From an uncultured Gammaproteobacteria bacterium (GTDB lineage Bacteria > Pseudomonadota > Gammaproteobacteria > Eutrophobiales > Eutrophobiaceae), in NCBI GenBank assembly GCA_951812995.1, contig CATOTD010000014.1:13794-77793 (forward strand): a stretch of DNA of 64,000 bases, in the 5' to 3' direction. The translations under genes and the position numbers were made by a program. A model generated the notes under the pieces. That model was given only the letters and a program-made list of their open reading frames with translations, was not told the origin of the DNA and ran no database searches. Shown piece by piece: positions 6,303 through 39,000 of this stretch. Within the stretch, counting starts at the first letter, position 1. The number at the start of each line of letters is the position of its first letter.

Positions 6303-6871
6303 GGAGACCTCGAACAACGCTGATTCTGGATGGGTTTTGACGCGAGCACCAGTCGTTGTCACCCGCATAGCGGGTGTTGAAGGTCAAGATCGGTAGTATT
6401 TGAGGCTGTGTTGCGCTGTTTGGGTTTGCCAAGGCGGGTATTTCCGGAATTTGGGCGGAGTCAGGCTGTGGCCTGTCGTCGCTCGTGGAAAATGAGACGG
6501 CGGAAGTTTGTAGCTCAGGTTGGCCATGGTCATGCGGGCCTTCGCACGGGTTTGGCCGATTGAGCGGATGGTCAGAGCCATGGGCCCTTTCTCGTAGCCG
6601 AACACAGGCGCGGATGGCGGAGCGTGTCGCGTTGCCCCGGCGAATATGCCTGGCCATGGGTTTGCCGCGTGGCTTCTTGCGATGGATATGTGAGCGGTAC
6701 CCTTGCGCCTTCAGCCAAGCCTCATTCCTGGCCGAGCGGTACCTGGTATCAGCCCAAACCGCCTTCGAGCTGTTTGTCTCGTCCAGAACCGAGGAGCGTT
6801 CATGCCCGTCGTAGCGAGCCGCATTCGTGCCAGTCTCACCCCGGATGAAGCGCCATTTGCGGTCAATGGAC
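6303..6871 (-). mobile_element. IS5-family type 1 element, 3' fragment
   Basis: Starts GGAGACCTCGAACAACGC, near-identical to 14230-14795. Cut at GTCAATGGAC by IS256 copy 3. Confidence 0.9.
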
Positions 6872-8256
6872 GAGTTATAACCGAATCTGGTGTCTGAATA
6901 AATTTAAAGTATGCGGCGTGCCTTGCTGGAATCGGTTTTGTCTAGCAATCAAAAGTAACAAGAGGAGCACGCCACACATGACAAAAGATACTGTGATTAA
7001 TCTGGGTACACCAGAGGATATTGACCCGTTGACTGGATTGCTACGTAGCGGTGCCAAACAGCTGATAACAGAAGCGATTCAGGCGGAGTTGGCCGAGTTG
7101 ATGGCAAGTTTTGATAATCAGAAAACGAGTGAAGGCAGACAGCGTGTTGTGCGCAATGGCTATCACCCAGAACGAGAAGTATTGACCGGTGTTGGCAAAG
7201 TACCAGTGTCGGTGCCAAAGATCCGTAGCCGAGAAGGCGAGCCTGAGAGCTTCCAATCGTTAATAGTGCCTCCTTACATCCGGCGCACAGCGACCCTGGA
7301 CGCGGCGATTCCCTGGCTTTATTTGCAGGGTGTTTCGAGTGGTCAGATGCAGAGCGCCCTGGAAGTGATTGTCGGGCCTGATGCCAAGGGCTTATCCGCC
7401 AATGCAGTTGGTCGCCTGAAACGTCAGTGGGAATCAGAGTACAAAACCTGGAGTACACGTTCAGTGACTGACGAATGGGTCTATATCTGGGCTGATGGCA
7501 TCTACAGTGGTCTTCGAGGTGACGATGGTTGATTGTGTTGTCTGGTCATCATTGGCGTGAACAGCCGCGGTCAGAAGCACTTCCTGGCAATTAAGGATGG
7601 TGTCAGGGAATCGAAGCAGAGCTGGTGAGAAGTCTTGTTGTCGTTGAAACAGCGAGGTTTAAACCAACCACCGAAGCTGGCGATTGGCGACGGTGCTCTG
7701 GGATTCTGGGTAGCATTGGAAGAAGTCTATCCTGAGACAACAGCACAACGCTACTGGATGCATAAGACCGGTAATGTACTGAACTATCTGCCGAAGTCTG
7801 TCCAGGAGAAAGCGAAACAAGGGCTACATGACATTTGGATGGCAGAGGGGCGCACTGATGCAGAGAAGGCATTTGATGCATTTGAGGAACGTTTTGGTGT
7901 CAAGTATCCCAAGGCAGTGGCATGCTTATCGAAAGACCGTGATGCGTTGCTGGCATTTTATGACTTTCCAGCAGAGCACTGGACCCACATCAGGACAACG
8001 AATGTCACCCCGTCGAGTTTTGCCACAATCCGGCACAGGACACGGCAAGCGAAAGGTCGTATCACACGAATAACGATGCTGACGATGATCTACAAGATGG
8101 GATTATGCGCAGAAGATTCCTGGCGCAAACTGCGAGGCTTCAGACACCTGGCCAAGGTGATTGGAGGCGTGAAGCTTAAAGATGGAATCGAAGTAACTGA
8201 GAACGACAAGGCAACCGCATGATTAACTTGTCAGACACTACTTTTGACAATAGCTC
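6872..8256 (+). mobile_element. IS256-family element, copy 3 (full length, in-frame stops)
   Basis: Imperfect IRs GAGTTATAACCGAATCTGGTGTCTGA / TCAGACACTACTTTTGACAATAGCTC. Transposase split into 6918..7532 and 7635..8222. No target duplication. Confidence 0.92.
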
Positions 8257-8259
8257 TGT

Positions 8260-8340
8260 GGGTTGAGATGGACCAGGTTGGGTCAAGCTGGAACCAGGCT
8301 GAGTCGGATGTGGTTGGGTCAAGCTGGGTCGGGCGTAGGT
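8260..8340 (+). repeat. Degenerate RRGYY pentamer tract
   Basis: GGGTT GAGAT GGACC AGGTT GGGTC AAGCT ... GAGTC ... GGGTC AAGCT GGGTC GGGCG. Confidence 0.85.
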
Positions 8341-8513
8341 AAGTAACACTTTAGTGCAAAGTGTCTCAGAATATATGAGATAGAAGATAAAACAACACCA
8401 TTTTTCAAACTTAGCCTTAAAGAATAAGGCAGAAGGCATAGCGTGATGGTTTATAAAAGATTATGCTTCTGATTTGAGGGCAATTATTTTACTCTTAACA
8501 GTTACTTGCTTTA

Positions 8514-9621
8514 GGCAACCTCTATTAATGCAATCACTTTCCAATTTATTGGCTCAGAGAGGTTAAAAAAACCAATTTGATCCAAAAAGCCGGTAGTCTC
8601 CGTACAGCCCTGTTCTCGGCTTTACTTTGTTTTCAAGACGCACTGACCCGTGCCAGAAAGCATAAACGCCTCATATTGTACCTTAGATTCATCAAACCGA
8701 TATGCATGCTTGTGCGCGTAATGCCAATGCAAGGAACCGCTTTGCGGCGTAAATTGCGCTGTGCTCCAAACACAGGTTCGACCCGACTACGCTAGCCTTG
8801 CCCTTGAGAAACGCTGCTTTTTCCTCTGACCGATAGGCACTGTCAGCCCAGACATCTTTACTGGTATTGCTGTCATCTGGCAGGTCGGCAAAAACCTGCG
8901 CATCATGGACGCTGGCATCAGTGACCTGATAGTCACTAATCAGCTTGTTGTCATGGTCTATCTGGATGTGGTTCTTGTAAGCAAAATGGCTGCGGCTATG
9001 TTGCTTCGTCCAGCGGGCCTCGGTATCTTTCTGACACCCTTTGTTATCGCACCAGGACAGCGCCTGCCTTAATCCGTGCATTGTCTTCCCAACGGTTACG
9101 CGGCAACAGTGCCGGAATGATCGAGGAGGCAACTATCTGATCCTTGCGAGCGATATAAGCAGCCTGGTTCAACGACAACTGCTCAAACAACAATGCCATC
9201 AGACCCAGCACCGCTAACCGATGCTTGAATGCCCAGCAGGTTTTGGCATCAGCGACTCGTTGCTGGCTAGCAAGACCCAGAAACTGCTGGAAACTGCTAC
9301 GGTCTTCGATTTGGTATCCCAACTGAGCATCGCTAAGACCATACAGATTTTGCACAAGCAGTCCCTTGAACATCATCACTACGTCTGTTGGGCGTTGCCC
9401 GCCTGACGCTTACGTTGTTTCTCATGAACCTTGTTCAACAACGACCGAAAAGATTCCCAGTCAACCGTCTTTTCCAGTTCAGGCAGAGGATTACCCAACT
9501 GTTTGAGACGATAGTCTTGAAGATTAAACAGGAAACCGAAAATGTCATTGCTCATGGAAGTTTCTTTGTCAGTTTGGAAACTTCAACATTGTACCAAATA
9601 GCGTAATTAATAGAGATGCTC
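8514..9621 (-). mobile_element. IS5-family type 2 element, copy 1 (pseudogene)
   Basis: IRs GGCAACCTCTATTAAT / ATTAATAGAGATGCTC. Fragments 9044..9379 (YGLSDAQLGYQIEDR) and 8692..9132 (DTEARWTK, VWADSAYRS). Confidence 0.88.
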
Positions 9622-10798: not shown

Positions 10799-11758
10799 GG
10801 ATTTTCAAGCAAGTGGGCATCACTGTGCTCGATAGTAGCGAGCATTGAACGTCTTGCTCATTACTCTCTTTCATTTCTCTTGTCCCGGCCTACTGTTTTC
10901 AGCTATAGCCCCTATTCCAGGCGTACTAAGCCACTGATAGCCGTAATAATTGTTTCTTTGATAGCATAAGATTAATCAGGGCACAGTGGGCAAACAGGTG
11001 GTCCGCATTCTTGCCTGGCCCTTTGAATCTGACTTTGGTAAATCCATATTGTCGCTGCATGATATGAAAGACATGCTCAACCTTGGCACGGACTTTGGAT
11101 TTGTGCCGGTTTTTAGCCTTGTCCTGTTCGGTCAGTTTGCGGTGACGTGAGCCTTTGACCTGGGTGTAGTCTTTTGCCTTGGGGTCATTATCCTTGAGTA
11201 CGGATTGCTGACCCGCATAGGCACTATCTCCCCAAAGACGGGTCTCTTCTCCATGCAGTAGGTCTCCAAGTACCTGTGAGTCGTGGACATGGGCTGGTGT
11301 GGCAACAACAGAGTGTATCAGTTTGGTTTTGCTATCCACACCGATGTGCGCCTTCATGCCAAAGTACCATGGCTTGCCTTTTTTGGTCTGATGCCTATCA
11401 AGATCACGGGTTTTGCTTTTGTTCTTGGTGGCGGTAGGCGCATTGATGATGGTCGCATCAACAATAGTGCCTTCTGGATACTTTCATGCTGTTTTCCTCC
11501 AGATAGACGGCAACAGCATCAAACAGGGCAACTCCGAGGTTGTTCTCCTCCAGCAGATGACGGAATTTACAGCGGGTGGTTGCATCTGGCACGGGTTCCA
11601 TGCCCACCGGACGGCGACCAGCAGGGGTTGGGGTAATGAGGCTCAATTACTGCAGTCAGCGCTTGCCAGGGAATGAGCTGATTCATCTCTTCGAGAAATA
11701 TCTCTTTGCGTGTCTGCTTGCGGTATTATCGCATATTATGGCATTAATCAGAGGTTTC
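10780..11758 (-). mobile_element. IS5-family type 3 element (pseudogene)
   Basis: IRs GGAACATCTAATCAA / TTAATCAGAGGTTTC flanked by CTAA / TTAA. Fragments MKAHIGVD..WGDSAY..RAKVEHVF (10926..11357) and [14 protein letters not shown]. Confidence 0.88.
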
Positions 11759-17176: not shown

Positions 17177-18240
17177 AGGAATCTCTATTAATTACGTTAT
17201 TTGGTACAATGTTGAAGTTTCCAAACTGACAAAGAAACTTCCATGAGCAATGACATTTTCGGTTCTCTGTTTAATCTTCAAGACTATCGTCTCAAACAGT
17301 TGGGTAATCCTCTGCCTGAACTGGAAAAGACGGTTGACTAGGGAGCTTTTCGGTCGTTGTTGAACAAGGTTCATGAGAAACAACGTAAGCGTCAGGCGGG
17401 CAACGCCCAACAGACGTAGTGATGATGTTCAAGGGACTGCTTGTGCAAAATCTGTATGGTCTTAGCGATACTCAGTTGGAATACCAAATCGAAGACCGTT
17501 GCAGTTTTCAGCAGTTTCTGGGTCTTGCTAGCCAGCAACGAGTCGCTGATGCCAAAACCTGCTGGGCATTCAAGCATCGGTTAGCGGCGCTGGGTCTGAT
17601 GGCATCGTTGTTTGAGCAGTTGTCGTTGAACCAGGCGGCTTATATCGCTCGCAAGGATCAGATAGTTGCCTCCTCAATCATTCCGGCACTGTTGCCGCGT
17701 AACCTTCGGGAATACAATGCCCGGATTAAGGCAGGCACTGTCCCTGCCCGCTGGACGAAGAAACATAGCCGTAGCCATTTTGCTTACAAGAACCACATAC
17801 AGATAGACCATGACAACAAGTTGATTCGTGACTATCAGGTCACTGATGCCAGCGTCCATGATGCGCAGGTTTTTGCCGACCTGCCAGATGACAGCAATAC
17901 CAGTAAAGATGTCTGGGCTGACAGTGCCTATCGGTCAGAGGAAAAAGTAGCGTTTCTCAAGGCGCAAGGTAAGCGCACGCGCTCCAAAGTTCGTAGTCGG
18001 GTCGAACCTGTGTTTGGAGCACAGCGCAATTTACACCGCAAAGCGGTTCCTTGCATTTGCATTACGCGAACAAGCATGCATATCGGCTTGATGAATCTAA
18101 GGTACAATATGAGGCGTTTATGCTTTCTGGCACGGGTCAGTGCGTCTTGAAAACGAAGTAAAGCCGAGACAAGGGCTGTACGGACACTACCGGCTTTTTG
18201 GGTCAAATTGGTTTTTTTAACCTCTCTGAGCCAATAAATT
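17177..18240 (+). mobile_element. IS5-family type 2 element, copy 2 (right end lost)
   Basis: Near-identical to 8540-9621 in opposite orientation. ORF 17419..18150. Confidence 0.88.
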
Positions 18241-19539
18241 GGAAGCCTCTAAAAACCGTACATTTTGTGGTACGGTCTGATTCACTTGATGTGGGAGGAT
18301 TTTGTTTATGCACGCACCTGGATTGTTTGATTTGACGGATCATTTGGCGCGGCTTTCGGCGATGGGATATCCGCTTGAAGCTCTGGACTGTCATGTGAAT
18401 TTCGAAGCACTCCGTCCCGTTTTGGTGGCAGCACTTGGCTATGGGGAACGTCCCAAAGGTGGTCGTCCGCCCTATGATGCCGTTGTGATGTTCAAGGTGC
18501 TGGTGTTGGCCTCGATGCACAATCTGAGCGATGAGCGGATGGAGTTTCTCATTCGTGACCGTTTCAGTTGGCTACGGTTCCTGGGATTTCAAATCGGGGA
18601 GCCGACACCTGATCAGAAGACGATCTGGCTTTTCAGAGAGAAGCTGACCTAGGCGGGTGTCTTCAAGGCCCTGTTTGCCGCGTTTGAAGCTCAGCTCTGC
18701 GCGCGGGGATACAAACCGACCGGCGGTCAGATTGTGGATGCCACGTTGGTCTTTGCCCCGCGCCAGCGGATGACGAAAGAAGAGAAAGCGCGCGCCAAGG
18801 CAGGTGAGGCCGCATCTGACATCTGGCCCGATGATCTGTCCAAGGCAGCGCAGAAAGACACCGATGCACGTTGGACGGTCAAGTATTCAAAGGCCAAGAC
18901 GACCAAGGAGGGTGAGGAGGATACTGGCCTTGTCGATATTTCGGTTCCGCACTTTGGGTACAAGAACCACGTGTCCATTGACCGCAAATGGCGCTTCATC
19001 CGGGGTGAGACTGGCACGAATGCGGCTCGCTACGACGGGCATGAACTCTCCTCGGTTCTGGACGAGACAAACAGCTCGAAGGCGGTTTGGGCCGATACCG
19101 GGTACCGCTCGGCCAGGAATGAGGCTTGGCTGAAGGCGCAAGGGTACCGCTCACATATCCATCGCAAGAAGCCACGCGGCAAACCCATGGCCAGGCATAT
19201 TCGTCGGGGCAACGCGACACGCTCCGCCATCCGCGCCTGTGTTCGGCTACGAGAAAGGGCCCATGGCTCTGACCATCCGCTCAATCGGCCAAACCCGTGC
19301 GAAGGCCCGCATGACCATGGCCAACCTGGGCTACAACTTCCGCCGTCTGATTTTCCACGAGCGACGACAGGCCACAGCCTGACTCCGCCCAAATTCCGGA
19401 AATACCCGCCCTGGCAGACCCAAACAGCGCAACACAGCCTCAAATACCACCGACCTTGACCTTCACACCCACTATGCGGGTGACAACGACTGGTGCTCGC
19501 GTCAAAACCCATCCAGAATCAGCGTTGTTCGAGGTCTCC
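18241..19539 (+). mobile_element. IS5-family type 1 element, 1299 bp
   Basis: Inverted copy of 14230-15528 with the same in-frame TAG at 18650-18652. The two flanks come from different elements. Confidence 0.93.
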
Positions 19540-19803: not shown

Positions 19804-20224
19804 GACCAGCGGTCGTCTGAGAGGTGAGTTGACCATCAGGGCCTTGCAGATGGCGATTACATTACTCTCAGGACACCATCAAAGGGGAGTATTCATCATA
19901 CGGACAGGGGTAGTCAGTACTGTGCGTATAATTATCAGCGGATATTGTGTGAGCATGGCTTGCAGATGTCTATGAGTAGCAAAGGGGATTGTTATGATAA
20001 TGTTGTTGTTGAGTCTTTCTTCAAGACGATGCAGGCCGAGCTTATATGGCGGCAGGACTGGAAAACCCGTCGGCAAGCCGAGACGTGGATATGCCAGTAC
20101 ATCAATGGTTTTACAACTTAACATCGAATGCATTTGGCACTGGGTTGTAAAAGCCCCGTTGCCTTCGAAAGAAGGGCGGGGTTAAAGTGAGAGTTCCATG
20201 CGGCACAAAACCGTGACAGATCTA
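19804..20224 (+). mobile_element. IS3-family transposase fragment (C-terminal part) and right end
   Basis: Manual translation IHHTDRGSQYC..SMSSKGDCYDNVVVESFFKTMQAEL..KSPVAFE, with frameshifts. Confidence 0.88.
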
Positions 20225-20302
20225 GATCGCCCCCACCCCATAGCGGAAGATTGAGCCATTGTAGGGATAATCTTCACATGCGATGTTTTGCGCAAAGGTC
20301 TC
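20225..20302. mobile_element. IS terminal remnant
   Basis: Ends TTTTGCGCAAAGGTCTC and matches 1680-1714. Confidence 0.6.
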
Positions 20303-20361
20303 GGCTTTAAGTTAATTGTGTTTTCGCAATGGATCGAATATCTGTATTATTTCCAATTACT

Positions 20362-21141
20362 ATGATGACCTATCCCAATATTGATCCGGTTGCGCTGGAT
20401 CTTGGATTCTTAAAAGTGCATTGGTACGGCATCAGCTATGTGGTGGGTATTGCCGGTGCCTGGTGCTTATTACAGTGGCGGGCTTACCAGGCGCGGTGGG
20501 GATATAGTGCGGAACAGGTGTCTGATCTTGTTTTTTATGCCCTGCTCGGCATCATCATCGGCGGTAGACTCGGATGGGTTATGTTCTACAACCTGCCCTA
20601 TTATCTCCAGCATCCTCTGGCAGTTTTTTATCTGCAACAAGGCGGGATGTCGTTTCATGGTGGGTTAATAGGGGTTATTACGGGTGTCTGGTTTTTTGCC
20701 CGCAAGATTAACCAGCCGTATTTTGCAGTGACAGATTTTATAGCCCCAGTGGTGCCGATTGGACTAGGCATGGGTCGGCTGGGCAATTTTATCAATGGCG
20801 AGCTTTGGGGAAGCCCCAGCACCTTACCTTGGGCGATGATTTTTCCAACGGCTGACGCAACCCCAAGACATCCCTCACAACTCTATGAGGCCCTTCTGGA
20901 AGGTCTAGTTTTGTTTATTATACTCTGGGTATTTTCAGCTAAACAGCGGCCGGTTCGGGCCCTATCGGGTTTATTTCTATTGGGCTATGGTGTGTTTAGA
21001 TTTGCCGTGGAATTTGTACGCATACCCGATGCGCATATTGGCTATCTGGCATTTGACTGGCTGACTATGGGGCAAATATTATCCATGCCCATGATCATCG
21101 GCGGCGGCGTTTTACTGGTCATGGCCTACCGCATTAAATAA
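20362..21141 (+). CDS. lgt: Prolipoprotein diacylglyceryl transferase
   Basis: YPNIDPVA, HWYG, GGMSFHGG, GRLGNFINGELWG, RHPSQLYE. Start taken at MMTYP. Confidence 0.97.
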   Translation: MMTYPNIDPVALDLGFLKVHWYGISYVVGIAGAWCLLQWRAYQARWGYSAEQVSDLVFYALLGIIIGGRLGWVMFYNLPYYLQHPLAVFYLQQGGMSFHGGLIGVITGVWFFARKINQPYFAVTDFIAPVVPIGLGMGRLGNFINGELWGSPSTLPWAMIFPTADATPRHPSQLYEALLEGLVLFIILWVFSAKQRPVRALSGLFLLGYGVFRFAVEFVRIPDAHIGYLAFDWLTMGQILSMPMIIGGGVLLVMAYRIK

Positions 21142-21160
21142 AAATTGAGGACAAAACAAG

Positions 21161-21952
21161 ATGCAACAGTATCTGGACTTATTAAGATATGTTAAGACGC
21201 AAGGTGTACGAAAACAGGATCGTACCGGCACTGGCACGCTAAGTATTTTTGGCTATCAAATGCGGTTTGATCTCAACGCTGGATTCCCATTAGTCACAAC
21301 AAAAAAATGCCATATAAAATCAATTATTCATGAACTACTGTGGTTTTTACAAGGCGATACCAATATCAAATATCTGCATGATAATGATGTCAAAATTTGG
21401 GATGAATGGGCCAATGCAGAAGGCGATTTAGGGCCGGTATATGGCGCGCAATGGCGGTCATGGCAAGCCGGTACACAAAGTATTGATCAGATAAGTCGGC
21501 TCATTGAGCAGATAAAAACCAATCCTGATTCCAGACGTTTGCTGGTGAGTGCCTGGAATGTCGGCGCGCTGGATAAAATGGCGTTGGCACCTTGCCATGC
21601 CTTGTTTCAATGCTATGTGGCCAATGGCACTTTGTCGTGTCAGCTTTATCAACGTAGTGCTGATATTTTCCTCGGCGTGCCCTTTAATATCGCATCGTAT
21701 GCCTTGCTGTTGATGATGGTAGCGCAAGTTACCAACTTAAAGGTGGGGGAGTTTGTGCATACTTTTGGTGACGCACATCTTTACCTAAACCACGAAAAAC
21801 AGGCGGATGAACAATTATCGCGCACACCCTTTGCACTGCCTGAAATGAAATTAAATACTGACGTGCGTGATATTTTTTCATTTAAGTATGATGATTTTGA
21901 GTTAATCAATTATGCAGCACATCCCGCCATTTCAGCACCAATCGCTGTTTGA
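21161..21952 (+). CDS. thyA: Thymidylate synthase
   Basis: [28 protein letters not shown]. Confidence 0.98.
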
Positions 21953-21975
21953 ACCCGGGCCTGGTTTTTAGTCGG

Positions 21976-22464
21976 ATGCAACTATCGATCATAGTCGCTA
22001 TGGATCGTAATCACGTCATAGGCAATAACACGACCTTACCCTGGCGTATCGCGGCCGATCTAAAAAACTTTAAAAAAATAACAATGGGTAAACCGGTTGT
22101 TATGGGTCGAAAAACGTATGAATCTATCGGCCGACCCTTGCCCGGCCGGGAGAATATCATCATAACGCATGATCAATATTATGCCGCCGTAGGCTGTACG
22201 GTTTTACACAGCATTGAAGCTATTGGCAAGCATTGTAAGGCGGCAACAGAAGTCATGATTGCCGGGGGTGCCGAGATATATCGCGCGACACTGGGGCAAG
22301 CGTCGCGTTTATATCTCACCGAAGTACAGGCGGCAGTACCAGGCGATACTTTTTTCCCGCAGTTTGATCGCCATGACTGGCAAGAGTCGGCAAGAGCAGC
22401 ATTCAAGGCCGATGCGGAAAATGAGTTTGATTATAGTTTTGTTATTCTGGAGAGGCGCTTGTAA
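21976..22464 (+). CDS. folA: Dihydrofolate reductase
   Basis: IIVAMDRNHVIG..LPW, VVMGRKTYESIGRPLPGREN, GDTFFP. Directly follows thyA. Confidence 0.96.
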   Translation: MQLSIIVAMDRNHVIGNNTTLPWRIAADLKNFKKITMGKPVVMGRKTYESIGRPLPGRENIIITHDQYYAAVGCTVLHSIEAIGKHCKAATEVMIAGGAEIYRATLGQASRLYLTEVQAAVPGDTFFPQFDRHDWQESARAAFKADAENEFDYSFVILERRL

Positions 22465-22468
22465 AAAG

Positions 22469-22786
22469 TGGTCGGGCGTGGGTCGAGATGGATCAAGCTG
22501 GGCTGGGCCAAGCTGGGCTGGGTTGAGTCGGGTCAAGCGTGGGTCAAGACGGGTTGAACTGAGTCAAGCTGGGTCGAGATGGATCAAGCTGGGTTGAACT
22601 GAGTCAAGCTGAGTCAAGCTGGGTCAAGCTGGGTCGGGCTAGGTTGATCTGAGTCGAGCTGGGCCGGGCTGGGTTGAGCTGAGTCGAGCGTGGTCGGGCG
22701 CGGGTCAAGCCAGGTTGAGATGGGTCAAGATGGATCAAGCTGAGTCAAGCTGGACCCGGCTGGGTTGAGCCGTGTCTGGCTGGACC
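22469..22786 (+). repeat. ~320-bp degenerate RRGYY pentamer array (~60 units) between convergent folA and apaH
   Basis: Units GGGTC, AAGCT, GAGTC, GGGCT, GGGTT, GAGAT, GAGCT, with dominant decamer GRGTCAAGCT. Confidence 0.92.
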
Positions 22787-23616
22787 CGTGGTGCTTGTTG
22801 TGACGGAACCTGGAAGTATTGTCCATCTTCCAGTCGCATGGCGGTTAATGCGCCGCCCCATAAACAACCCGTGTCTAACGGGAAGACGTTATATTGTTCA
22901 GTATTATTGTGACTCCCGGCGGCCAGCGTAGACCAGTGCCCAAAGATAACTTTATTTTGCCTTGTTTTCCGCGCCGGTAATGAATACCAGGGGATTAGGT
23001 TTTTATTTTGTGTGCTGGGGGCTTTTTTTTCTTTTAAGTTCAATCTGCCATCCGCCTCACAATAACGCATCCGCGTAAAACAATTTATGATGAAACGATG
23101 CCGATCATAGCCTGTGATTGCGTCATGCCACTGATCAGGGCTATCCCCGAACATAGACGGCAAGAATTGCTTAAATTGATCACCGCGTAATAGCGACTCT
23201 GTTTCCTGCGCTAATTCTAGGGCCTCTGTTAATGACCATTGCGGATGTATGCCAGCGTGTACCATCGTAAAGTTCAGGTCTGCATCATGCACAAGCAAGG
23301 GACGTGATCTTATCCACTCAAGCAGTTCAGAGGCCGCATCAGCATTGAGGATTTCATCCAGGGTATCTTTTTTGTGCGGCTTATAGATACGGTTGGCGAC
23401 AGCCAGTAGATACAGATCATGGTTGCCAGATACAACGCTTGCAGCATCACCCAGCGATTTCACGAATTGTAGGCAAGCCAGCGATGCCGGCCCGCGATTG
23501 ATCAAATCACCCACAAACCAGAGACGGTCTTTAGCGGCATCAAAATTAATGCGATTGAGCAAGTCTTGCAATTCTGTATAACAGCCTTGCAGATCACCTA
23601 TCGCATAGGTGCTCAT
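22735..23616 (-). CDS. apaH: Symmetrical bis(5'-nucleosyl)-tetraphosphatase
   Basis: YAIGDLQGC, GDLINRGP, GNHD, VHAG, FGHWS, LDTGCLWGG. Confidence 0.96.
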   Translation of the reverse strand: MSTYAIGDLQGCYTELQDLLNRINFDAAKDRLWFVGDLINRGPASLACLQFVKSLGDAASVVSGNHDLYLLAVANRIYKPHKKDTLDEILNADAASELLEWIRSRPLLVHDADLNFTMVHAGIHPQWSLTEALELAQETESLLRGDQFKQFLPSMFGDSPDQWHDAITGYDRHRFIINCFTRMRYCEADGRLNLKEKKAPSTQNKNLIPWYSLPARKTRQNKVIFGHWSTLAAGSHNNTEQYNVFPLDTGCLWGGALTAMRLEDGQYFQVPSQQAPRVQPDTAQPSRVQLDSA

Positions 23617-23618
23617 TA

Positions 23619-23999
23619 TTAATGCAGGGTGTTTGGTGTGGAGAGATTAAACACCGGTATTTGCACATTGAAGTCCATACCATCATCTGCGACCATTGCA
23701 TACGTGCCTTGCATACAACCCACCGGGGTTGCCAAGACGGCGGCACTGGTATAGCGGAATGATTCGCCTGGCATGAGGTGTGGCTGTTCACCGATAACCC
23801 CCTCACCCTGGACTTCCTGGGTTTGACAATTAGCATCTGTAATCAGCCAATGGCGGCGTAGCAAGGTGGCGGCGGCGTGGCCGGTGTTGGTGATGGTGAT
23901 GGTATAGGCAAAGACGTAACGACCGCCTTCCGGAGAAGATTGGTTGGCCACATATTCAGTCTCCGTGATAATCTTTATGTCGTATTGTTTCTTGCCCAT
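23619..23999 (-). CDS. apaG: ApaG protein
   Basis: YVFAYTITI, RHWLITD, VQGEGVIGEQP, YTS. Adjacent to apaH. Confidence 0.96.
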   Translation of the reverse strand: MGKKQYDIKIITETEYVANQSSPEGGRYVFAYTITITNTGHAAATLLRRHWLITDANCQTQEVQGEGVIGEQPHLMPGESFRYTSAAVLATPVGCMQGTYAMVADDGMDFNVQIPVFNLSTPNTLH

Positions 24000-24049
24000 A
24001 GTGCTATTTCAGCTTAATCAAGCGTTGGGTTCAAGTAGTTTGGTATTGC

Positions 24050-25570
24050 TCATACGATTGCTTGTGACGAACGGGTCTTCTGCCGGTAGCTGATAGCTTC
24101 ACTGAGGTGTTGTGTCTGGATGTTATCACTTTGCGACATGTCCGCGATCGTTCTTGCGACCTTCATAATCCGATGTATTGCGCGACCGGAAAGCCCCAGT
24201 TTTTTTGTCGCCGTCTGGAGCAGTGCCTTATCAGCGCCAGACAAGGTACAGTAGCGTTCTATGTCATTGGTAGTCAGGGTTGAATTGGACGTGCCATGAC
24301 GATTTTGTTGTATGTTAAATGTAGCCGTGACACGTTGTCTGACAGTGGTGCTAGATTCAGATGAGGCCTCTCTTGTTTGGTTGATGATCAGCTCTGGCAA
24401 GCTGTGTACTTCAATAATCATATCGAGTCTATCTAGGAGCGGCCCGGAAATTTTATATTGATAACGGTTAATCTGCTCTTCAGTACAGCGGCAACGACTG
24501 CTCGTATCACCTAGATAGCCGCAAGGGCAAGGGTTCATGGCGGCAATAAGCTGAAAGTTTGCCGGGTATTCGACTTGGTTGGCCGCCCGTGATATGACGA
24601 TACGGCCTGATTCTAGCGGCTCGCGTAACACTTCTAAGACATGGCGATTAAACTCAGGCAGCTCGTCGAGAAACAAGACACCATTGTGCGCCAGCGATAT
24701 TTCGCCTGGTTTTGGATGACTGCCACCCCCCACCAATGCGACAGATGAGGCGGAGTGGTGCGGTGCGCGAAAAATGCGTTGCCGCCATGATGCAGGATCG
24801 AATCCCCGGTTACTGATTGATGCGATCGCCGCACTTTCCAGTGCTTGTACCTCGGTCATCGGTGGCATGATGCCAGGTAGACGCTCTGCCAGCATGGTCT
24901 TGCCGGAACCAGGCGGGCCGATCATCAGTAAATTGTGCCCCCCTGCCGCTGCAATCTCCAAGACACGTTTGGCCTGCTCGTGTCCGTAGACCTCATTGAG
25001 ATCAAGGTCGTATGCGATAGCTGTGTTGAATTGTTTGCGCTGATGTTCTGGCAATGCCTGGGTGCCGACTATATGTGCGCACACATCCAATAATTGTGTC
25101 GCTGGTTTGCAAACGGTACCGTCAACCAGCGCGGCTTCATCGGCGTTGTCCATAGGCAGGATCAGATCGCGTTCAGAATGTTTAACGGCCAGCGCGACGG
25201 GTAATGCGCCGGTTATCGATCTTAATTCACCCGTTAAAGACAACTCGCCAATGGCTTCATGATCTTTAATACCACTGTTGGGGATTTGTCCCGATGCGAT
25301 TAAAATTCCAAGCGCGATAGGGAGGTCAAAACGCCCGCCTTCTTTTGGTAGATCGGCCGGTGCCAGATTGACAGTAATTCTGCTGAGTGGAAAATCAAAT
25401 TGATTGTTGAGGATGGCACTGCGGACACGTTCCTTGCTTTCTTTCACTGTGGTCTCTGGCAAGCCAACAATAGTAAAGCCGGGCAAGCCGCGTGAAAGAT
25501 GGACTTCAATGGTGACTAGAGGCGCATTGATGCCATCTTGTGCGCGTGAGTAAATGATTGCCACACTCAT
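24050..25570 (-). CDS. comM: YifB/ComM Mg-chelatase-like AAA+ ATPase
   Basis: VGLPETTVKESKERVR, NLAPADLPKEG, GPPGSGKT, FRAPHH, AAMNPCPCG. Confidence 0.95.
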   Translation of the reverse strand: MSVAIIYSRAQDGINAPLVTIEVHLSRGLPGFTIVGLPETTVKESKERVRSAILNNQFDFPLSRITVNLAPADLPKEGGRFDLPIALGILIASGQIPNSGIKDHEAIGELSLTGELRSITGALPVALAVKHSERDLILPMDNADEAALVDGTVCKPATQLLDVCAHIVGTQALPEHQRKQFNTAIAYDLDLNEVYGHEQAKRVLEIAAAGGHNLLMIGPPGSGKTMLAERLPGIMPPMTEVQALESAAIASISNRGFDPASWRQRIFRAPHHSASSVALVGGGSHPKPGEISLAHNGVLFLDELPEFNRHVLEVLREPLESGRIVISRAANQVEYPANFQLIAAMNPCPCGYLGDTSSRCRCTEEQINRYQYKISGPLLDRLDMIIEVHSLPELIINQTREASSESSTTVRQRVTATFNIQQNRHGTSNSTLTTNDIERYCTLSGADKALLQTATKKLGLSGRAIHRIMKVARTIADMSQSDNIQTQHLSEAISYRQKTRSSQAIV

Positions 25571-25656
25571 GAGTGTTTCATTCCTGAAATCAATTAATTA
25601 TCTCAACTAATCTACCATAGTTTCAGTTTTAATAACGCTTTGAGTTAAACCCCTTT

Positions 25657-25716
25657 GAGTCGGGCCAGGTCGGGTCGGGTTGATCTGGGCTGAGCTGGGC
25701 TGGGCTAGGTTGGGTC
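25657..25716 (+). repeat. Degenerate RRGYY pentamer tract (12 units)
   Basis: GAGTC GGGCC AGGTC GGGTC GGGTT GATCT GGGCT GAGCT GGGCT GGGCT AGGTT GGGTC. Confidence 0.88.
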
Positions 25717-26077
25717 GGAAGGTCTCAGTCTGCCAGCCGCGCTGCCGTCCCATAAACCGGCTACAAATAGAACGCTATTAAACCAAGCAGCATGCTTAAT
25801 CTGCCGCACAGGGACTGGACAGCATATTTACACACCCGATTTTTATCCTTAAGATGAAATGCTGTGCTGGCTAATGGCAATTGTAAACATGATAGACAGG
25901 CAAGGTACTGGAAGTTGGCGTGGTAGCCTTAATTTAATCAGATAGGATCAAGGCTGGCATATTGTGTGTTGTCAGATATGCGTCGTTGGGAATTAAAAAA
26001 TCGTGGGCGTTGCATCGTCGGTATTTTTATTATGGCCATCTGGTTTACGTTTTAATCTTCGCGCGTTTGATGAATTA

Positions 26078-26168
26078 GGAGAGGTGTCCGAGTGGTTTAA
26101 GGAGCACGCCTGGAAAGCGTGTATACGCTAATCGCGTATCGAGGGTTCGAATCCCTCTCTCTCCGCCA
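26078..26168 (+). tRNA. tRNA-Ser (GGA)
   Basis: GGAGAGG acceptor stem, CACGC-CTGGAAA-GCGTG anticodon arm, long variable arm, GGTTCGAATCC T-arm, ends GCCA. Confidence 0.96.
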
Positions 26169-29216: not shown

Positions 29217-30146
29217 TCATGCTAGCACCTCGCGATAGGTAATCCGTTTACCTATCGCGTTGCTTATAAGTGATTCTATACGTTGATTGGTTGGTAACTT
29301 ACATGGTCCGTTATTCAGTCTAAAAGTCACTTCGTTCACATAGCGATGTAAGTGTTTAGTGCTGGCATGAGGCCATACCCCATACAGACCGCGTTTGAGT
29401 AAAGCCCAGACACTTTCAATGCTATTGGTATGAATGTTGTTTGAACCCACATATTCTCCCGCACTATGGGTTACCGTACCATGCTGATAAGCAGACTGTA
29501 AATGCTGATATGACCTGTGTTCATCTGTGTAAATGGTGGCACCATATTCCACTGAACAGCCAATCTCTTTGTGCAGGGTCGGTATATCAGTTGATGGGAT
29601 AGGCTTAGCCCTTGTGCGGCCACCGCGCTCACGCATTCCGACCACTACCTGCTTGCCAGCTACGCCACGGCCTGCGCGGACTTTCTTGTGTTTGTGTTTG
29701 TTATGTTCCTTCCCACCGATATAGGTCTCATCAATCTCAACAATGCCAGAAAGTAAATTATCTGTATTATCGTTACAGGTTTCACGAATGCGGGCCTGCA
29801 TAAACCAGGCGGTCTTTTGAGTTACTCCGATTTGTTTAGATAACTGCAAGCTAGATATGCCCTTGCGCGAGGTGACAGTTAAGTAAATAGCATATAGCCA
29901 TTTATGTAGTGGAACATGAGAACGTTCAAAGATAGTGCCGGTTCTCACCGTAAACTCACTCTTACAGTCCCGGCATAAGTAATATCCTGTCCGCTTTCCT
30001 TTGCGCGGGGTAATACGCTTAAATTCCCCACAATGAGGACAGGATATGTAATCTCTCCAGCGTTGTCCCTCAAAATACAATCTAGCGGCTTCAGCATCCG
30101 GAAACTGGCGAAATAACTCAAATGTGGATATGGTATTGTCTTTCAT
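29217..30146 (-). CDS. IS1595-family transposase (apparently intact)
   Basis: Zn ribbon CPHC/CRDC, GISSLQL, VEIDETYIGG, IYTDE, HTNSIESVW, YVNE..FR.N. Confidence 0.94.
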   Translation of the reverse strand: MKDNTISTFELFRQFPDAEAARLYFEGQRWRDYISCPHCGEFKRITPRKGKRTGYYLCRDCKSEFTVRTGTIFERSHVPLHKWLYAIYLTVTSRKGISSLQLSKQIGVTQKTAWFMQARIRETCNDNTDNLLSGIVEIDETYIGGKEHNKHKHKKVRAGRGVAGKQVVVGMRERGGRTRAKPIPSTDIPTLHKEIGCSVEYGATIYTDEHRSYQHLQSAYQHGTVTHSAGEYVGSNNIHTNSIESVWALLKRGLYGVWPHASTKHLHRYVNEVTFRLNNGPCKLPTNQRIESLISNAIGKRITYREVLA

Positions 30147-32432: not shown

Positions 32433-34550
32433 TTACCTATTCACGGTTGGCGATTTTGTCTGTGCGGCCTTTGCCTGCGCGGCTTGGCGCAGTTTGGCCA
32501 AAACCTGATCTTTGGGGCCATCCATCACGATCTGGTTGTTGGCCAACACGATGATTCGATTGGTCATAGTTAGCATGTGTGGTTTATGGGTCGCCAGCAC
32601 CAGGGTACTTTTATCGCCCATGGATTGCATCAAGGCATTGGCAACATACTGCTCCATGGCCTCATCCATGTGGGCAGTCGGCTCATCAAGTAACCAGATG
32701 ACTGGCTCACGCAACAAGGCACGGGTAATATGCACCAACTGACGCTGACCACCCGAAAGACCAATGCCGCCTTCGAATATTTCTTGCTCCAGCCCCTTGG
32801 GGTGCGGTGTAATAACCGCCTGCATCAAACCACAACGCTCGGCTACCGCCAGTAGCTGATCATCGCCGGGATCGGCCAGCCCCAATATCAGATTATCGCG
32901 CAAGGTACCAGCAAACAAGCGGCCTTCCTGCGGTACATAACCCATGTGCCGTGCCAGCAATGGCTTGGAAATATGGCTGATATCAACGCCATCGAGCAAT
33001 ACCCGCCCTTCGCTTGGTTTATACATGCCAGAGAGCAGGCGTAGTAACGTGGTTTTGCCAGAGCCCACCGATCCAATCACGCCGATCCTGTCGCCCGCGG
33101 ACACGGCAAGCTGCGGCAACGCCAGAATAACGCTACCACGATAGCCGGCCTTTATTTTTTCACAAACATAATTACCGACCACATTTTCCACCATGATGGG
33201 TTTCGTGTCCTGCTCATGATCAAGCTGCAGTTTCCACAAGGTGTCGAGATCTCTGACCGACACCTTGGTATGCGCCCATTGGATGATTTGTTGCGGGACC
33301 ATGGCCACCGGTGCCAGTATCCGGCCGGACAAGATAGAACAGGCAATCAGCCCGCCCATGGTGAGATTACCGCTACTGATCTGTAGCGCACCAAAAGCGA
33401 TCAGGGAGATATAGGACAACTGTTGAAAGGCGGCGATCAGATATTGCGAATGCTCGGTAATGTTGCGCATCAACAGCTCAAAATGGCGGGCTTCATCGGT
33501 AATATCAAGCCAACGGGACAACAACCGCCAGCCGCCCTGTCCGGATTTTATGGTCTCGGCCCCTTCAACGGATTCGACCAACAAGCCCGTCTTAAAATGC
33601 ACAGCCGCAGTGATCTTGGCCGCCCAGTGTTGTACGCGGCGGTGATATAGCAGGCCGACCACTAGGCCGATGCACAAGAAAATGGCCGGTATGATTGCCA
33701 AATAGCCGCCAACCGTAAACAAAACGCCTAAAAACAGCAGTGCCATCGGGCCATCAATCACTAACTGGGTGGTCACGCCGACTAAAAACGTGCGCACGCT
33801 TTCATAACCACGCAAGCGTTGCGCTAAAGCACCGACACTCGGCGGCAACTGATCTAAGCGCAATGCCAAAAATCGTGAATACACATTGCGGGCTAGGCGT
33901 TGGTCAACGGCATCGGCCAGCCGTTGGTAGAGTCCGCAACGGATCCACTTGGCACTGGCCTCAACTAAAATGGCGATCAACACGCCGATGGTCAAGGCAA
34001 TCAGGGTCGCGCTGGCACTGGTTGGCACCACTCGATCATACACCTGCATGGTGTAAAACGCGGTGGCTAATGCCATGACGTTAATCAATATCGTGCTGGT
34101 AAAGACCTCACGCAAAAGCGCCTTTTCAGCAAACAACTCGTCTTTTACTAGCTGGAAGGTCGGGCTTTCGCTGGCATCAAACGGCCTTGCCAAACGCAAC
34201 CTAGCAAAACGATGATCCTCTAAACTGTCGTAGTGTTGCTCGCGCCACTTGTTTTCCTTTTCATCAAAAAATTCAACAGACCAGGCACCTAACTCATTTT
34301 GGCCAATCAATGCCCCCCAGTTGCCTTGCTGGTCAAGTATCAGCATGGGTACACGCGAGGCATCGGGCTTATTCTGCCAACGGGGGCGCGACAATCCCAA
34401 GGCCTTGGTAATACCCAATAATTTAGTCTCAGGGCTGTCTGTTTCCGGTGCCTGGTTTACCGCATCGCGCAATGACAGCGGGTCTAGCGATTCGCGTTGC
34501 AATACGGCAATGCGCATCAGCGCAGTGACCAGCATGTCTTGATTAGTCAT
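32433..34550 (-). CDS. Type I secretion ABC transporter (LapB/LssB-like, C39-like N-domain)
   Basis: YTMQVYDRVVP, Walker A GSVGSGKTT, LSGGQRQ, LLDEPT, THK. Confidence 0.95.
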   Translation of the reverse strand: MTNQDMLVTALMRIAVLQRESLDPLSLRDAVNQAPETDSPETKLLGITKALGLSRPRWQNKPDASRVPMLILDQQGNWGALIGQNELGAWSVEFFDEKENKWREQHYDSLEDHRFARLRLARPFDASESPTFQLVKDELFAEKALLREVFTSTILINVMALATAFYTMQVYDRVVPTSASATLIALTIGVLIAILVEASAKWIRCGLYQRLADAVDQRLARNVYSRFLALRLDQLPPSVGALAQRLRGYESVRTFLVGVTTQLVIDGPMALLFLGVLFTVGGYLAIIPAIFLCIGLVVGLLYHRRVQHWAAKITAAVHFKTGLLVESVEGAETIKSGQGGWRLLSRWLDITDEARHFELLMRNITEHSQYLIAAFQQLSYISLIAFGALQISSGNLTMGGLIACSILSGRILAPVAMVPQQIIQWAHTKVSVRDLDTLWKLQLDHEQDTKPIMVENVVGNYVCEKIKAGYRGSVILALPQLAVSAGDRIGVIGSVGSGKTTLLRLLSGMYKPSEGRVLLDGVDISHISKPLLARHMGYVPQEGRLFAGTLRDNLILGLADPGDDQLLAVAERCGLMQAVITPHPKGLEQEIFEGGIGLSGGQRQLVHITRALLREPVIWLLDEPTAHMDEAMEQYVANALMQSMGDKSTLVLATHKPHMLTMTNRIIVLANNQIVMDGPKDQVLAKLRQAAQAKAAQTKSPTVNR

Positions 34551-34553
34551 GTG

Positions 34554-35861
34554 TCATAATCCTGAAAGTCCTTTCGTGTAAATATATAAGCGCCAGCTTG
34601 CAGACAATTGTGCCGAATCCGCATCGGCCAATTGCACCTCGCTGGTGGCCAGCTCACGGCTGGCATTCATCAGGTCAAGCCAGCTCTTGGAGCCGGCCAG
34701 AAACTGGCGCTCGTAGGATGCCTGTATCAACTGTGCAGAAGCCACGACTTGTTTTATGATCGCAACGCGCTTTTGTGATGCCTGTAACACGGCATAACTG
34801 TTGCGCACTTGTTCTTTGATAGCAAGGTGGGTGGCTCTGACTTGTGCCTCGGCGGATGCTAAAATCGCCTGAGCCTCGTTTATCCGACTCATAGTCGACA
34901 GCCCCGCACCAAACCGGCTTTGTAAACCAAAAAATACTCGGGAATCCGAGTCGGCATCGAGTCGCGTGAAGTTGCCTTTCTGGTGTTCCAGTCTGACAAA
35001 CACCTCCGGCCAATTATCGGCCTTGCGGGAACGGATGAGTGCCTTGGCGACCCGCGTTTCTTCCATTACCCTGCGCAATGACGGACTGGTTTGTTCGGCT
35101 TCGGCCAGGGCAGTCGTTATATCGGGTTCTGGCGGTAGCACTTGCGGCAATCTTTGCGCCAATCTCGCCTCAGCAAGTGGACTACCAAGTAATTGGCCAA
35201 GCTGCAATAGGGCCGTTTCACGCGATACACCGGCTAGCGCAATGTCAGCCTGTACCAGCTTAATGCGCTCATTGGCAAGTTCCAGATCACTCCTACTGGA
35301 GGCACCGGCCGCTACTCGGCGGGCAATTTTATCGCGCAGGCGTTGATGTTCTCTAACACTGCGTTGCCAAGCCTCATACCTGAACCAGGCAGAGAGCCAC
35401 CGACTGTAAGCCGCCACGATATCCAGCGACAACTGTAATTGTGCCTCGCCCAATGAGGCAAACGAGGCGTCCAACTGCGCCTGGGCTTGATCGAGGTCAG
35501 CACTGAGACGGCCGGCAGTCCAGATCGGTTGCTGAATACGCAATACAGTCACCATATCGTCGCCAGCATAATTGCCATCCGTAGCACTGGCATCGACCAG
35601 TTCCACAGATACGGATGGGGTCGGCCATAATTGCCATTTTGCCGATTGCACATTCGCCCGGGACTGTTCCATTCTGGCACGGGCTATATCTACCTGTGGT
35701 GCATCCGCGATACCCTCGCGCAACAATTCAGGCAATAGCTCCGTATCGTTGAATGCCATGCCAGGTGTCGGCACCAGCAATGTGAGCACGAACAACCACA
35801 AACATACGCACAGGCGACTCTGAAACGAGCACAACTGCGAGGTCATTATAAACATCTTCAT
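34554..35861 (-). CDS. TolC-family outer membrane channel (LapE/AggA-like)
   Basis: Signal peptide, WPTPSV, QPIWTAGRL, YERQFLAG.KSWLDLMNA.RE. In operon with the ABC and HlyD genes. Confidence 0.93.
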   Translation of the reverse strand: MKMFIMTSQLCSFQSRLCVCLWLFVLTLLVPTPGMAFNDTELLPELLREGIADAPQVDIARARMEQSRANVQSAKWQLWPTPSVSVELVDASATDGNYAGDDMVTVLRIQQPIWTAGRLSADLDQAQAQLDASFASLGEAQLQLSLDIVAAYSRWLSAWFRYEAWQRSVREHQRLRDKIARRVAAGASSRSDLELANERIKLVQADIALAGVSRETALLQLGQLLGSPLAEARLAQRLPQVLPPEPDITTALAEAEQTSPSLRRVMEETRVAKALIRSRKADNWPEVFVRLEHQKGNFTRLDADSDSRVFFGLQSRFGAGLSTMSRINEAQAILASAEAQVRATHLAIKEQVRNSYAVLQASQKRVAIIKQVVASAQLIQASYERQFLAGSKSWLDLMNASRELATSEVQLADADSAQLSASWRLYIYTKGLSGL

Positions 35862-36014: not shown

Positions 36015-39000
36015 CTATATCACCGCAAAATAATTGGCGAAATTATCGATAATGTCTTGATGATCAACGTCGTTGAGAATCAGGTAGACCAAGGTGTTAT
36101 CGTCTGCGCTGACGATATTGGCATGTTCGCCGTTATCGAGCACCGCCAGACCCAGACCGGCCAGCGTTTCCTCGGTACCGTCATCTACATCGACTTGAAT
36201 GCGGTCGCCATCGGCCTGCACAAAGTCAAGTATGGTGTCGGTATCTGCAGCCTCGGCATCAGTGTCCAGTACAAACCTATCCTCACCCGCGCCGCCGGTC
36301 AGCATATCCTCACCCGCGCCGCCGGTCAGCATATCCATACCCGCACCGCCGTCAAGAATGTCATCGCCCGCGCCGCCTTCGAGTACGTTGTCATTCCCAT
36401 CGCCGATAAGCACATCGTTATAGCCTGAGCCGATCAAGTTCTCGATACTGATGAGTACATCGCCTTCGGCTTCGCTACCAACTTGTGCGTCTGCCTTGTT
36501 TAGATTGACATACACGCCGGTCACGCCCATCACTTCGGCCGCAAGCCCGTTGACTGCATCTACTGCCACGACATACTCCACCACCTGTGCCGCATTCGCA
36601 TACGAGGCCGTATCCGTGTCATCGCCGCCGGTCAGCATATCTGCACCCGCCCCGCCGTCAAGGGTGTCCACACCTGTACCGCCGATAAGCGTGTCATCGC
36701 CCGCACCACCGTTTAAGGTGTCGTCATTAACCCCGCCTTCCAATCTGTCATTGCCATCACCACCATTGAGGGTGTCATTGCCTTCTCTGCCGCTAAGTTT
36801 ATTGTTGTTTGTATCGCCGGTTAAGGTGTCGTCATACGCCGAGCCGATAATATTTTCGATATTGGATAAGAGATCACCTGCGGCATGACCACCGGCTTGG
36901 GCCGTGGTTTTGCCAAGATCAACAACCACCCCGGCATCAGAGGCACCATACGTGACCGTATCGGTGCCGTCACCACCATCAATCTGGTCGGGAGCGGAAG
37001 TTGCAATCAGTAACCCGTCATCGCGGCCATCATTAATGGTATTTGGGATATTGATTTTATGTTGTGCCTGATTATTCAGTGCCCTGGATAACAGTGTCGC
37101 ATCATGACCAACACTATCGGTGATAGTCGCACCTCCTTGGCGAGAGAGTGCATTTTCCACAACACTCAGGCCATTTGCATCGGTATCATTGTCCGCAACC
37201 GTATAGGTAAACACCACCGTATCACCCTCGCTTTGATCCGCATCATAAACCGCATCGCGCGCCCTGAAGCCGACAATCAACTGCAATATCGGTGCACCAG
37301 TGACCACTACCGCCTCGGAAAACCTAACGGTAAATTCAATCACATCGCCGGTTCGGTAAATTGCGTCAGCACCGGCATCGGAGCTGATAGTGATAGCGTT
37401 TACGCTTGGCGGGGTCTGATCGATGTTGAATGTAAATTGCTCGCTTTTCGCGCCTTGTTTGTCGGTTTCGGTATCAACCACAACACCTATCAGTGCAAGC
37501 ACTTGTTTGTCGTTCAAAGTACGCTCATCTACATACTCCCAATCCGTCCCTGTGACCTCGGCCTCACCCAAAAAAGTGCTACCATCGTAGATATACAATG
37601 CCTCATTATCCTGTAGTTCCCGACTTAAGGTACCGACTATTACCGGTAGATCATCATCGGTCGCATCGCCATCTTGTAAATTGTCTCTAATAGTCCCTCT
37701 ATCATCCTCAACGTGGGTAATGGTCGGCGTGACAGCAGGGCCGGAGGTATCCACCGTGTGTACGGGATCAGCGTCCACTTCGTCATGATCAAGCCGCGCA
37801 TCAACGCTTGCGTCTGCATCATCAGCGTCTGCGTCTGCGTCATCAGCATCTGCATCAGCGTCTGCGTCATCAGCGGCATCTGCTTCATCTTCATCTGGTA
37901 TAGTGCCGTCTTTTATCGTGCCATCACCAAGGCTGATGGCATCGGCATCGATATGGATACCGTCAGCATCGGCATCGCCCTCCTGTACTTCGTATGAAAA
38001 CACCATCACTCTCGATCCGCCGTCTGCTTCGTCATCTGCCTGATAGGTGGCATTTCTGACATTCTCACCCACCTGGATTTCAATAAACGGCGTGCCAGTG
38101 ACAACCACCGTCTTGGAAAACGTAACGGTAATCTCGATATGGTCTCCAACCACGTAATAATCAACCAGGGATGGCTCTGAGCTAATGTAAACATTCGTGA
38201 CATAGGGCGGTATGGTTTTGACGATCAACGATACTAATTTGGGGATAGTGTCCACTTCTTCGGGCTCGGCAGCAGCAATGGCCGCCTGGATATCGCCTAA
38301 GTCCTCGTCGGCAAAGGTGCCGAGATTCAAAGCCCGTAATTGCGCCAGGGTAATCGCCGTGCCATCATCGGTAGCGGCGGCAGTGGCAATCGCATCAAGG
38401 GCACTGGCAATAGCCTCAAAGGCTGCTTTTTCATCGGCATCGGTGGCAATCTGATCGGCAAAACCATCCACCTTGGCTGCTTGTGCACCAGTTACCAGAT
38501 CGATTTTAGCATCATCCGCAAGGCCTTGTTCTGACAGTGATTCACTTAAGCGCTCCAGTACCGCATCGGTGGATTCATCTTTAATTTTTTCTATACCAGA
38601 TAGAGATGCCAGTGCCTTGCCGTAGGCGTTGGGGGCATCGTCGCCAGTCGTTGGGTCGCCGTCTTTATCCACCGTCGGCTTGACCGCACCCGACACCAGG
38701 TCATCGGCATCGGCTGTATCATCATCGCCCGTGATACCAAAGGCATCGGCAACCGCGGCCTGCGCATCAGTGACCTGCTCGGGCGTGATGCTTGAGGCAC
38801 TGATACTGGTTTCGGTGTCCGCCCCACGACCGCTAGCAAGGCCCGCCTTGCGCGTGGCCAGCTCGGTCAACGGGTTGACATTGACCGTCTTGGTCTCACC
38901 TGCGGCCGGGGCTACGGTAATAGTGCGCAAATCCGTGCCGAGGTCTTTAGGCGCGCCGGTTGCCTCGTCTTGGTAGTCGGGATCAGCGTTGTCGTCTGTG

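Follow-up and report, generated by a model that had tools for sequence, protein, structure and literature searches.

MITEs are characterized by terminal inverted repeats, a target-site duplication, small size, a lack of coding capacity and high copy number. The described element closest to the one reported here appears to be BrickBuilt of Porphyromonas gingivalis, which consists of a leader, spacer-less imperfect tandem repeats, a tail and small inverted-repeat ends (Klein et al. 2015, PMC4596501). Eleven of its 19 copies have both ends, 3 the leader only, 2 the tail only and 3 neither (PMC4596501). Table 2 of the same paper prints the 12-nt termini of BrickBuilt_4 and of the IS5-family element ISNme1, and ISNme1 is given there, on the basis of terminal repeats, as the proposed parent of the Neisseria meningitidis MITE 'ATR' (PMC4596501). 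ATR, as that source portrays it, is AT-rich and has no G-rich array, unlike the element considered here.

Vertebrate immunoglobulin switch regions have a strand-asymmetric vocabulary of G-rich pentamers, and the STRR repeats of cyanobacteria are short tandem repeats grouped with a type known from Xanthomonas and Nostoc. The Xanthomonas and Nostoc repeats are dispersed G-rich heptamers, four units being the preferred number (Rehm et al. 2015, PMC4692102).

Here we analyse a window of 64,000 nt (contig C14:13794-77793) from a genome (G000) of 3.05 Mb in 17 contigs with 46% G+C. A first-pass annotation had marked three intergenic tracts of RRGYY pentamers in this window, likened them to switch-region DNA and suggested several chromosomal functions for them. 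We find that the tracts are probably the variable interior of a non-autonomous MITE family that carries a tandem repeat, and not a new chromosome signal.

The element is probably a MITE with a degenerate G-rich pentamer array, closest to BrickBuilt in its architecture and in the printed 12-nt termini. Common to the two are the order of leader, variable repeats and tail, an intergenic location, a limited host range, many copies without one or both ends, and the lack of a transposase remnant. They differ in their units (23 nt in BrickBuilt, a degenerate G-rich pentamer with a weak decamer here), in number (19 copies against ~120 arrays), in hosts, which belong to different phyla, and in their duplications, which are 2-5 bp and irregular in BrickBuilt and 5 bp here. 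Promoter activity has been demonstrated for BrickBuilt, whereas the present element is known from sequence alone. The Xanthomonas and Nostoc repeats are likewise short G-rich intergenic tandem repeats, G-quadruplex-capable and under-represented between divergent genes, but they are heptamers with a four-unit preference and are not described, in the abstract of that paper, as the cargo of an inverted-repeat element; our arrays consist of pentamers, are 30-456 nt long and have no four-unit mode. The resemblance to switch regions is superficial: the pentamer vocabulary is alike, but there is no shared ancestry or machinery, and polarity here is set by transposon orientation.

Pentamer arrays in the window

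We parsed the window strictly for RRGYY units, using 500 same-composition shuffles of 22469-22786 as a control. All three tracts are in-phase RRGYY pentamer arrays, far above chance (Table 1); for the longest, the shuffles averaged 7.6 strict units and never exceeded 16. Tandem Repeats Finder returned periods of 5, 10, 15 and 40 on the window tracts (5 and 10 for the third), among them a period of 10 at 22530-22753 (22.2 copies, 68% matches) and one of 40 at 22532-22753. The parse, the shuffles and Tandem Repeats Finder thus bear out the three tracts where they had first been placed.

We also compared bases within array interiors whose limits were set solely by head and tail, in 17 elements with 3498 nt. 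Identity reaches 0.44 between bases 5 nt apart and 0.48 between bases 10 nt apart, whereas lags other than multiples of 5 give 0.20-0.37, in agreement with the 5-bp phase and 10-bp super-period originally described, although the super-period is weak. Agreement in purine/pyrimidine class is 0.76 at lag 5, and G makes up 45% of the bases. The arrays of RRGYY units are therefore real, but their units are not transition-only variants of one another, since 43% of the lag-5 differences are transversions or phase slips. CRISPR arrays have 24-48-nt repeats with unique spacers, and REP/BIME elements palindromic units of 20-40 nt together with a RAYT transposase; the periods found here are 5, 10 and 40 nt, head to tail, and the units are direct pentamers. 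Because the period is 5 nt and spacers are absent, the arrays are neither CRISPR nor REP, as had been noted at the outset.

The genes around the longest array run in the order lgt, thyA, folA, followed on the opposite strand by apaH, apaG and a comM-like gene; ApaH was named from its Metallophos domain and the neighbouring apaG. The array begins 5 nt past the folA stop codon and overlaps the 3′ end of apaH. In all seven relatives examined, ApaH stops a few residues after its last conserved block; here the array adds a C-terminal extension to the protein. Promoter and terminator scans of the window array found neither.

A Logan contig of 5969 nt from run X1, which may be the source sample of the genome, matches 20195-26163 with 0 differences and spans the second and third tracts, the repeats themselves being skipped. 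Contigs from run X2 break off at array edges, at positions 22496 and 25647. In both runs, read depth and variant contigs pile up at the tRNA gene ~360 nt from array 3 (Rfam RF00005, 55.4 bits), which is what a conserved gene would produce in mixed samples.

Table 1. Positions of arrays, element ends and other features within the window
Feature	Position	Strand	Remarks
66-nt tandem repeat	1946-2218		4.1 copies, 91% matches; apparently coding
IS examples	~6870-8256; 8509-9620; 10968-11474; 17746-17970; 18950-19234		
IS example	29220-30146	-	
Array 1	8260-8340	+	9 strict units, 56% of tract; 5′ side cut by IS256-family element ending ~8256
MITE tail and terminal inverted repeat	8340-8367	+	Immediately 3′ of array 1
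Solitary MITE head, without array	20230-20302	-	Terminal repeat toward lgt; end at C14:34095 = window 20302
Longest window array	22469-22786	+	41 strict units, 64% of 318 nt; whole convergent folA-apaH spacer
G4 motif, canonical, in longest array	22500-22532		One motif
apaH 3′ end read from C-rich strand of array	22735-22794	-	19 terminal residues and stop
Array 3	25657-25716	+	11 strict units, 92% of tract; between comM-like gene and tRNA gene
G4 motif chain in array 3	25662-25714		
Remnant of outer tail inverted repeat	25719-25732	+	Directly after array 3; by eye against consensus, below profile threshold
tRNA gene	26078-26165	+	
ABC transporter	32433-34550	-	
TolC-like outer-membrane protein	34554-35861	-	
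RTX-repeat protein	36015-39737	-	1240 aa
Giant open frame	40379-64000	-	At least 7842 aa

Genome-wide occurrence and host range

A phase-aware scan of the whole genome found 121 array loci of 30-456 nt each, 13,462 bp in total, against 1 in a shuffled genome; at a stricter threshold, 121 segments were found in the genome and 0 in the shuffled one. Most of the arrays lie between genes, as judged by crude longest-ORF calls. The proposal of a genome-wide intergenic repeat family is upheld by this excess (121 loci against 0-1 in shuffled genomes).

The family appears to be confined to this genome among those searched. Runs of six consecutive RRGYY units, the scan that had been suggested for the genome, occur 137 times here, in none of 22 congeners, in neither of two other genera of the family and in 2 of 16 other families, there solely as perfect simple repeats. 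A search of 40 relatives with the minimal element yielded nothing at E<0.001, three of them giving chance-level hits of 22-24 nt, and 125 other genomes of the order likewise had no match. A class-wide BLAST search with a complete element, in which two candidates per genome were scored and one genome was left unscored, gave no match in 399 genomes, and plasmid and phage collections gave no match either. Elements and arrays had no match in Rfam, the window yielding only the tRNA. The expectation that the family was undescribed is consistent with these searches of Rfam and of relatives.

A related-locus search with ApaH, leaving out the source genome, retrieved distant metagenome bins only. A comparison of folA-apaH spacers in relatives for empty sites had been suggested. 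Relatives have unremarkable DNA at this position, and the spacer of relative G005 is 168 bp long, AT-rich and without an array, but the array of our genome at this locus has no ends. Other spacers of relatives are too divergent to align, because the flanking genes are only 66-72% identical.

Element ends and target-site duplications

When array flanks were placed in G-rich orientation, a recurring sequence lay directly 3′ of many arrays and a related one, inverted, lay 5′ of others. The two sequences, a head of ~70 nt and a tail of ~30 nt, finish in the same 18 nt, inverted. With nhmmer profiles of the head (73 nt) and tail (38 nt), we found 63 heads and 71 tails in the genome at E<0.01. At least one end accompanies 71 of the 121 arrays: 19 have head and tail, 36 the tail only and 16 the head only, leaving 50 with neither. 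The longest window array belongs to the last group, with neither head nor tail detected by the profiles.

Twenty-one complete elements of 115-661 bp were identified, whose interiors of 16-555 nt are the arrays; the shortest complete copy has ~3 units. No transposase gene would fit into interiors of this size. In 5 of 16 complete elements the two termini are bordered by an exact 5-bp direct repeat, where 0.02 would be expected per offset; two of these five are one element in a duplicated segment, so that 4 of 15 are independent. Of the 11 without an exact duplication, several agree at 3-4 of 5 positions and others not at all. The element is thus a MITE, with terminal inverted repeats, a target-site duplication and a small, non-coding, multicopy form. 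A match to a MITE-type family had been named as an outcome that would count against the first-pass reading, and a MITE in kind is what the inverted repeats and duplications reveal.

Array 1, its tail and ~140 nt of downstream flank (window 8257-8513) are duplicated at C1:207685-207938 with 93% identity; the window copy lies between the end of the IS256-family element and a fifth IS family.

Origin of the termini

The first 12 bases of both termini are identical to the 12-nt termini printed for BrickBuilt_4 and for ISNme1 of the IS5 family (PMC4596501, Table 2). The terminal repeat thus appears to be of IS5-family type. In this genome we found neither an autonomous element carrying the MITE termini nor a full-length ISNme1-like element with them.

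A 1.7-kb element at C4:245723-247456, which ends in the MITE termini and contains an IS1595-family transposase, was considered as the parent and rejected, as it is a MITE with an IS inserted: by BLAST, the insert occupies positions 49-1510 and has its own termini and 8-bp AT-rich duplications. The two abundant IS5-family elements (131 and 30 copies), the IS256-family element (53 copies) and the fifth IS at 8509-9620 were likewise set aside, none of them having the MITE termini. We can only infer a helper, because the commonest IS5-family element, with 131 copies, has just the outermost 7 bases in common with the MITE and makes duplications of ~4 bp rather than 5 bp.

Array remodelling

On 78 arrays of at least 60 nt, Tandem Repeats Finder gave periods that are multiples of 5 in 186 of 223 rows. 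Larger blocks are also repeated, about twice and at 90-100% identity, inside many arrays: blocks of 56 nt at 100% identity, 78 nt at 95%, and 91 and 161 nt at 91%. Such near-identical, in-register blocks indicate that arrays are remodelled in place in the pentamer register, and they speak against the earlier statement that slippage does not explain the tracts. The best match of the window array to any other array is 76%, a level that shows common vocabulary rather than recent copies.

Together, these observations are consistent with the following course of events. A complete element, read on its G-rich strand, comprises an 18-nt terminal inverted repeat, a conserved head of ~55 nt, an RRGYY array of anything from ~3 units to more than 400 nt, a tail of ~12 nt and the second terminal inverted repeat, the whole flanked by a 5-bp target-site duplication. 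Since the element encodes nothing, it would have been moved in trans, by a resident IS5-family transposase or by a parent since lost. The G-strand polarity of each tract would be the orientation in which the element landed. After insertion, array length changes locally by gain and loss of blocks in multiples of 5 nt; the duplicated blocks are seen directly, and the mechanism is probably replication slippage or unequal exchange. It is plausible that the quasi-palindromic units and the G4 potential of the DNA drive slippage, perhaps through hairpins with G-T or G-U pairs and through G-quadruplexes. Many copies would later have been stripped of their head, their tail or both. Another IS inserting there would explain a few of these losses; an IS insertion lies near only 9 of the 50 end-less arrays.

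Alternative explanations

The share of arrays without ends, 41% of the 121, touches on a further reading, in which the array is more than passive cargo: prone to hairpins and G4, it would renew itself, persist after its transposon has decayed and act as a length-variable, orientation-dependent barrier to replication or transcription, or as a substitute terminator. We regard this reading as unlikely. If it were true, the convergent folA-apaH pair, with the array as its sole spacer, would be an example, and the arrays would be a MITE-seeded bacterial counterpart of unstable eukaryotic G-rich minisatellites.

The 50 arrays without a detectable end could also suggest an independent satellite, beside which mobile head and tail pieces preferentially insert, making the arrays target rather than cargo. 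Other IS do insert in or near the elements above chance: an IS lies within 80 nt of 6 of 86 arrays that lack a head and of 7 of 66 that lack a tail, compared with 1.3% of random positions. The arrangement of the ends nevertheless makes a satellite improbable. Head and tail face outward with a polarity fixed relative to the G-rich strand in 88 of 91 cases (34 of the 36 heads lie upstream of their arrays and 54 of the 55 tails downstream), and none of these 91 array-adjacent ends has its terminal repeat pointing at the array. Moreover, the 5-bp duplications bracket the whole unit, an element of 113 bp has only ~3 units between head and tail, and no array was found outside a terminal repeat. Cargo of a MITE is therefore the reading we retain. 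IS inserted within or at the ends of the MITE, in head, tail or terminal repeat, were seen at C1:169138-170525, C1:80692, C2:244454, C3:103927 and C12:36149; these repeated insertions suggest that other IS prefer the MITE as a target or can land in it safely.

We consider it very improbable that the arrays are selected chromosome signals (protein-binding or nucleoid-organising sites, G4 regulators or replichore marks) for which the mobile element is the vehicle. Canonical G4 motifs are strikingly concentrated, with 111 of the genome's 135 (82%) inside arrays that make up 0.44% of the DNA, which supports the G4 potential first attributed to the tracts, and convergent gene pairs are in mild excess among array-bearing spacers (31 observed against ~21 expected, p 0.03-0.06, by crude gene calls). 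Orientation, however, follows none of the expected cues. All ten strict runs of at least three RRGYY units in the window are on the + strand, so the uniform polarity reported for the tracts is true of the window, but genome-wide 65 arrays are on the + strand and 56 on the -. Array strand is unrelated to the direction of flanking genes, by crude longest-ORF calls, and to the sign of local GC skew, with 57 arrays concordant and 64 discordant, a test that is soft because skew is weak in this draft genome. The shared polarity of the window tracts is thus a coincidence, and the suggested replichore-oriented signal finds no support within the limits of the skew test. Array lengths of 30-456 nt show no preferred size, and the 125 other genomes of the order yielded no arrays, so there is no conserved cellular function that relies on them.

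Folding could point instead to a structured-RNA gene, its G-rich strand transcribed from the head into long imperfect hairpins. For 22469-22786, the predicted RNA fold has an energy of -145.5 kcal/mol on the G-rich strand (z -5.8, with 0 of 100 shuffles as good) and of -73 kcal/mol on the C-rich strand (z -0.8); the fold of one complete element has a z of -3.4 and pairs the two termini, and a promoter-like site directed into the array is present in one of three heads scanned. Yet this strand asymmetry follows automatically from quasi-palindromic RRGYY units and G-U wobble pairing, the other two heads have no promoter-like site, Rfam gave no match, and array sequence is not conserved between copies, the 76% match of the window array being its best. 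An RNA gene is accordingly a highly improbable account. Finally, the idea that a reverse transcriptase or telomerase-like activity left the tracts by templated addition, a process proposed on first inspection, is scarcely credible: short G-rich units resembling telomeric and switch repeats are the sole point in favour, whereas the units are heterogeneous rather than copies of one template, growth proceeds by duplication of local multi-unit blocks, the arrays lie inside inverted-repeat elements and not at the ends of DNA, and nothing else pointed to such a process.

IS load and neighbouring loci

Together, four IS families account for 14.0% of the genome and contribute 264 full-length copies: two of the IS5 family (131 and 30 copies), one of the IS256 family (53) and one of the IS1595 family (50). 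A fifth, IS5-like family of ~1.1 kb, represented at window 8509-9620, falls outside this count, so that IS occupy at least 14% of the genome and at least three IS5-family elements are present (131 copies, ~30 copies and the one in the window). For the IS1595-family transposase, relatives have a few distant homologues at most. The genome is in an IS bloom.

The giant open frame that runs to the end of the window is built of 369-nt and 27-nt repeats and contains RTX calcium-binding nonapeptide repeats, of which 23 stretches were counted in 1499 aa. Together with the neighbouring RTX-repeat protein, TolC-like outer-membrane protein and ABC transporter, it looks like a type I secretion locus, and it accounts for the elevated G+C of contig C14.

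Implications

These findings trace an exotic, switch-region-like signal to an ordinary mechanism, a MITE that spreads a short tandem repeat. They would provide a second example of the leader-repeat-tail design of BrickBuilt, in another phylum and with the same 12-base terminus. For the host, the effects seem incidental: gene ends are overwritten, spurious open frames arise, and most of the G4 motifs of the genome are supplied by the arrays. The spurious open frames created by the arrays matter for annotation, and the contigs of run X2 that break at arrays show that they matter for assembly. More generally, a single mobile element can supply most of the G4 motifs of a bacterial genome (111 of 135) and can rewrite gene ends, as in ApaH.
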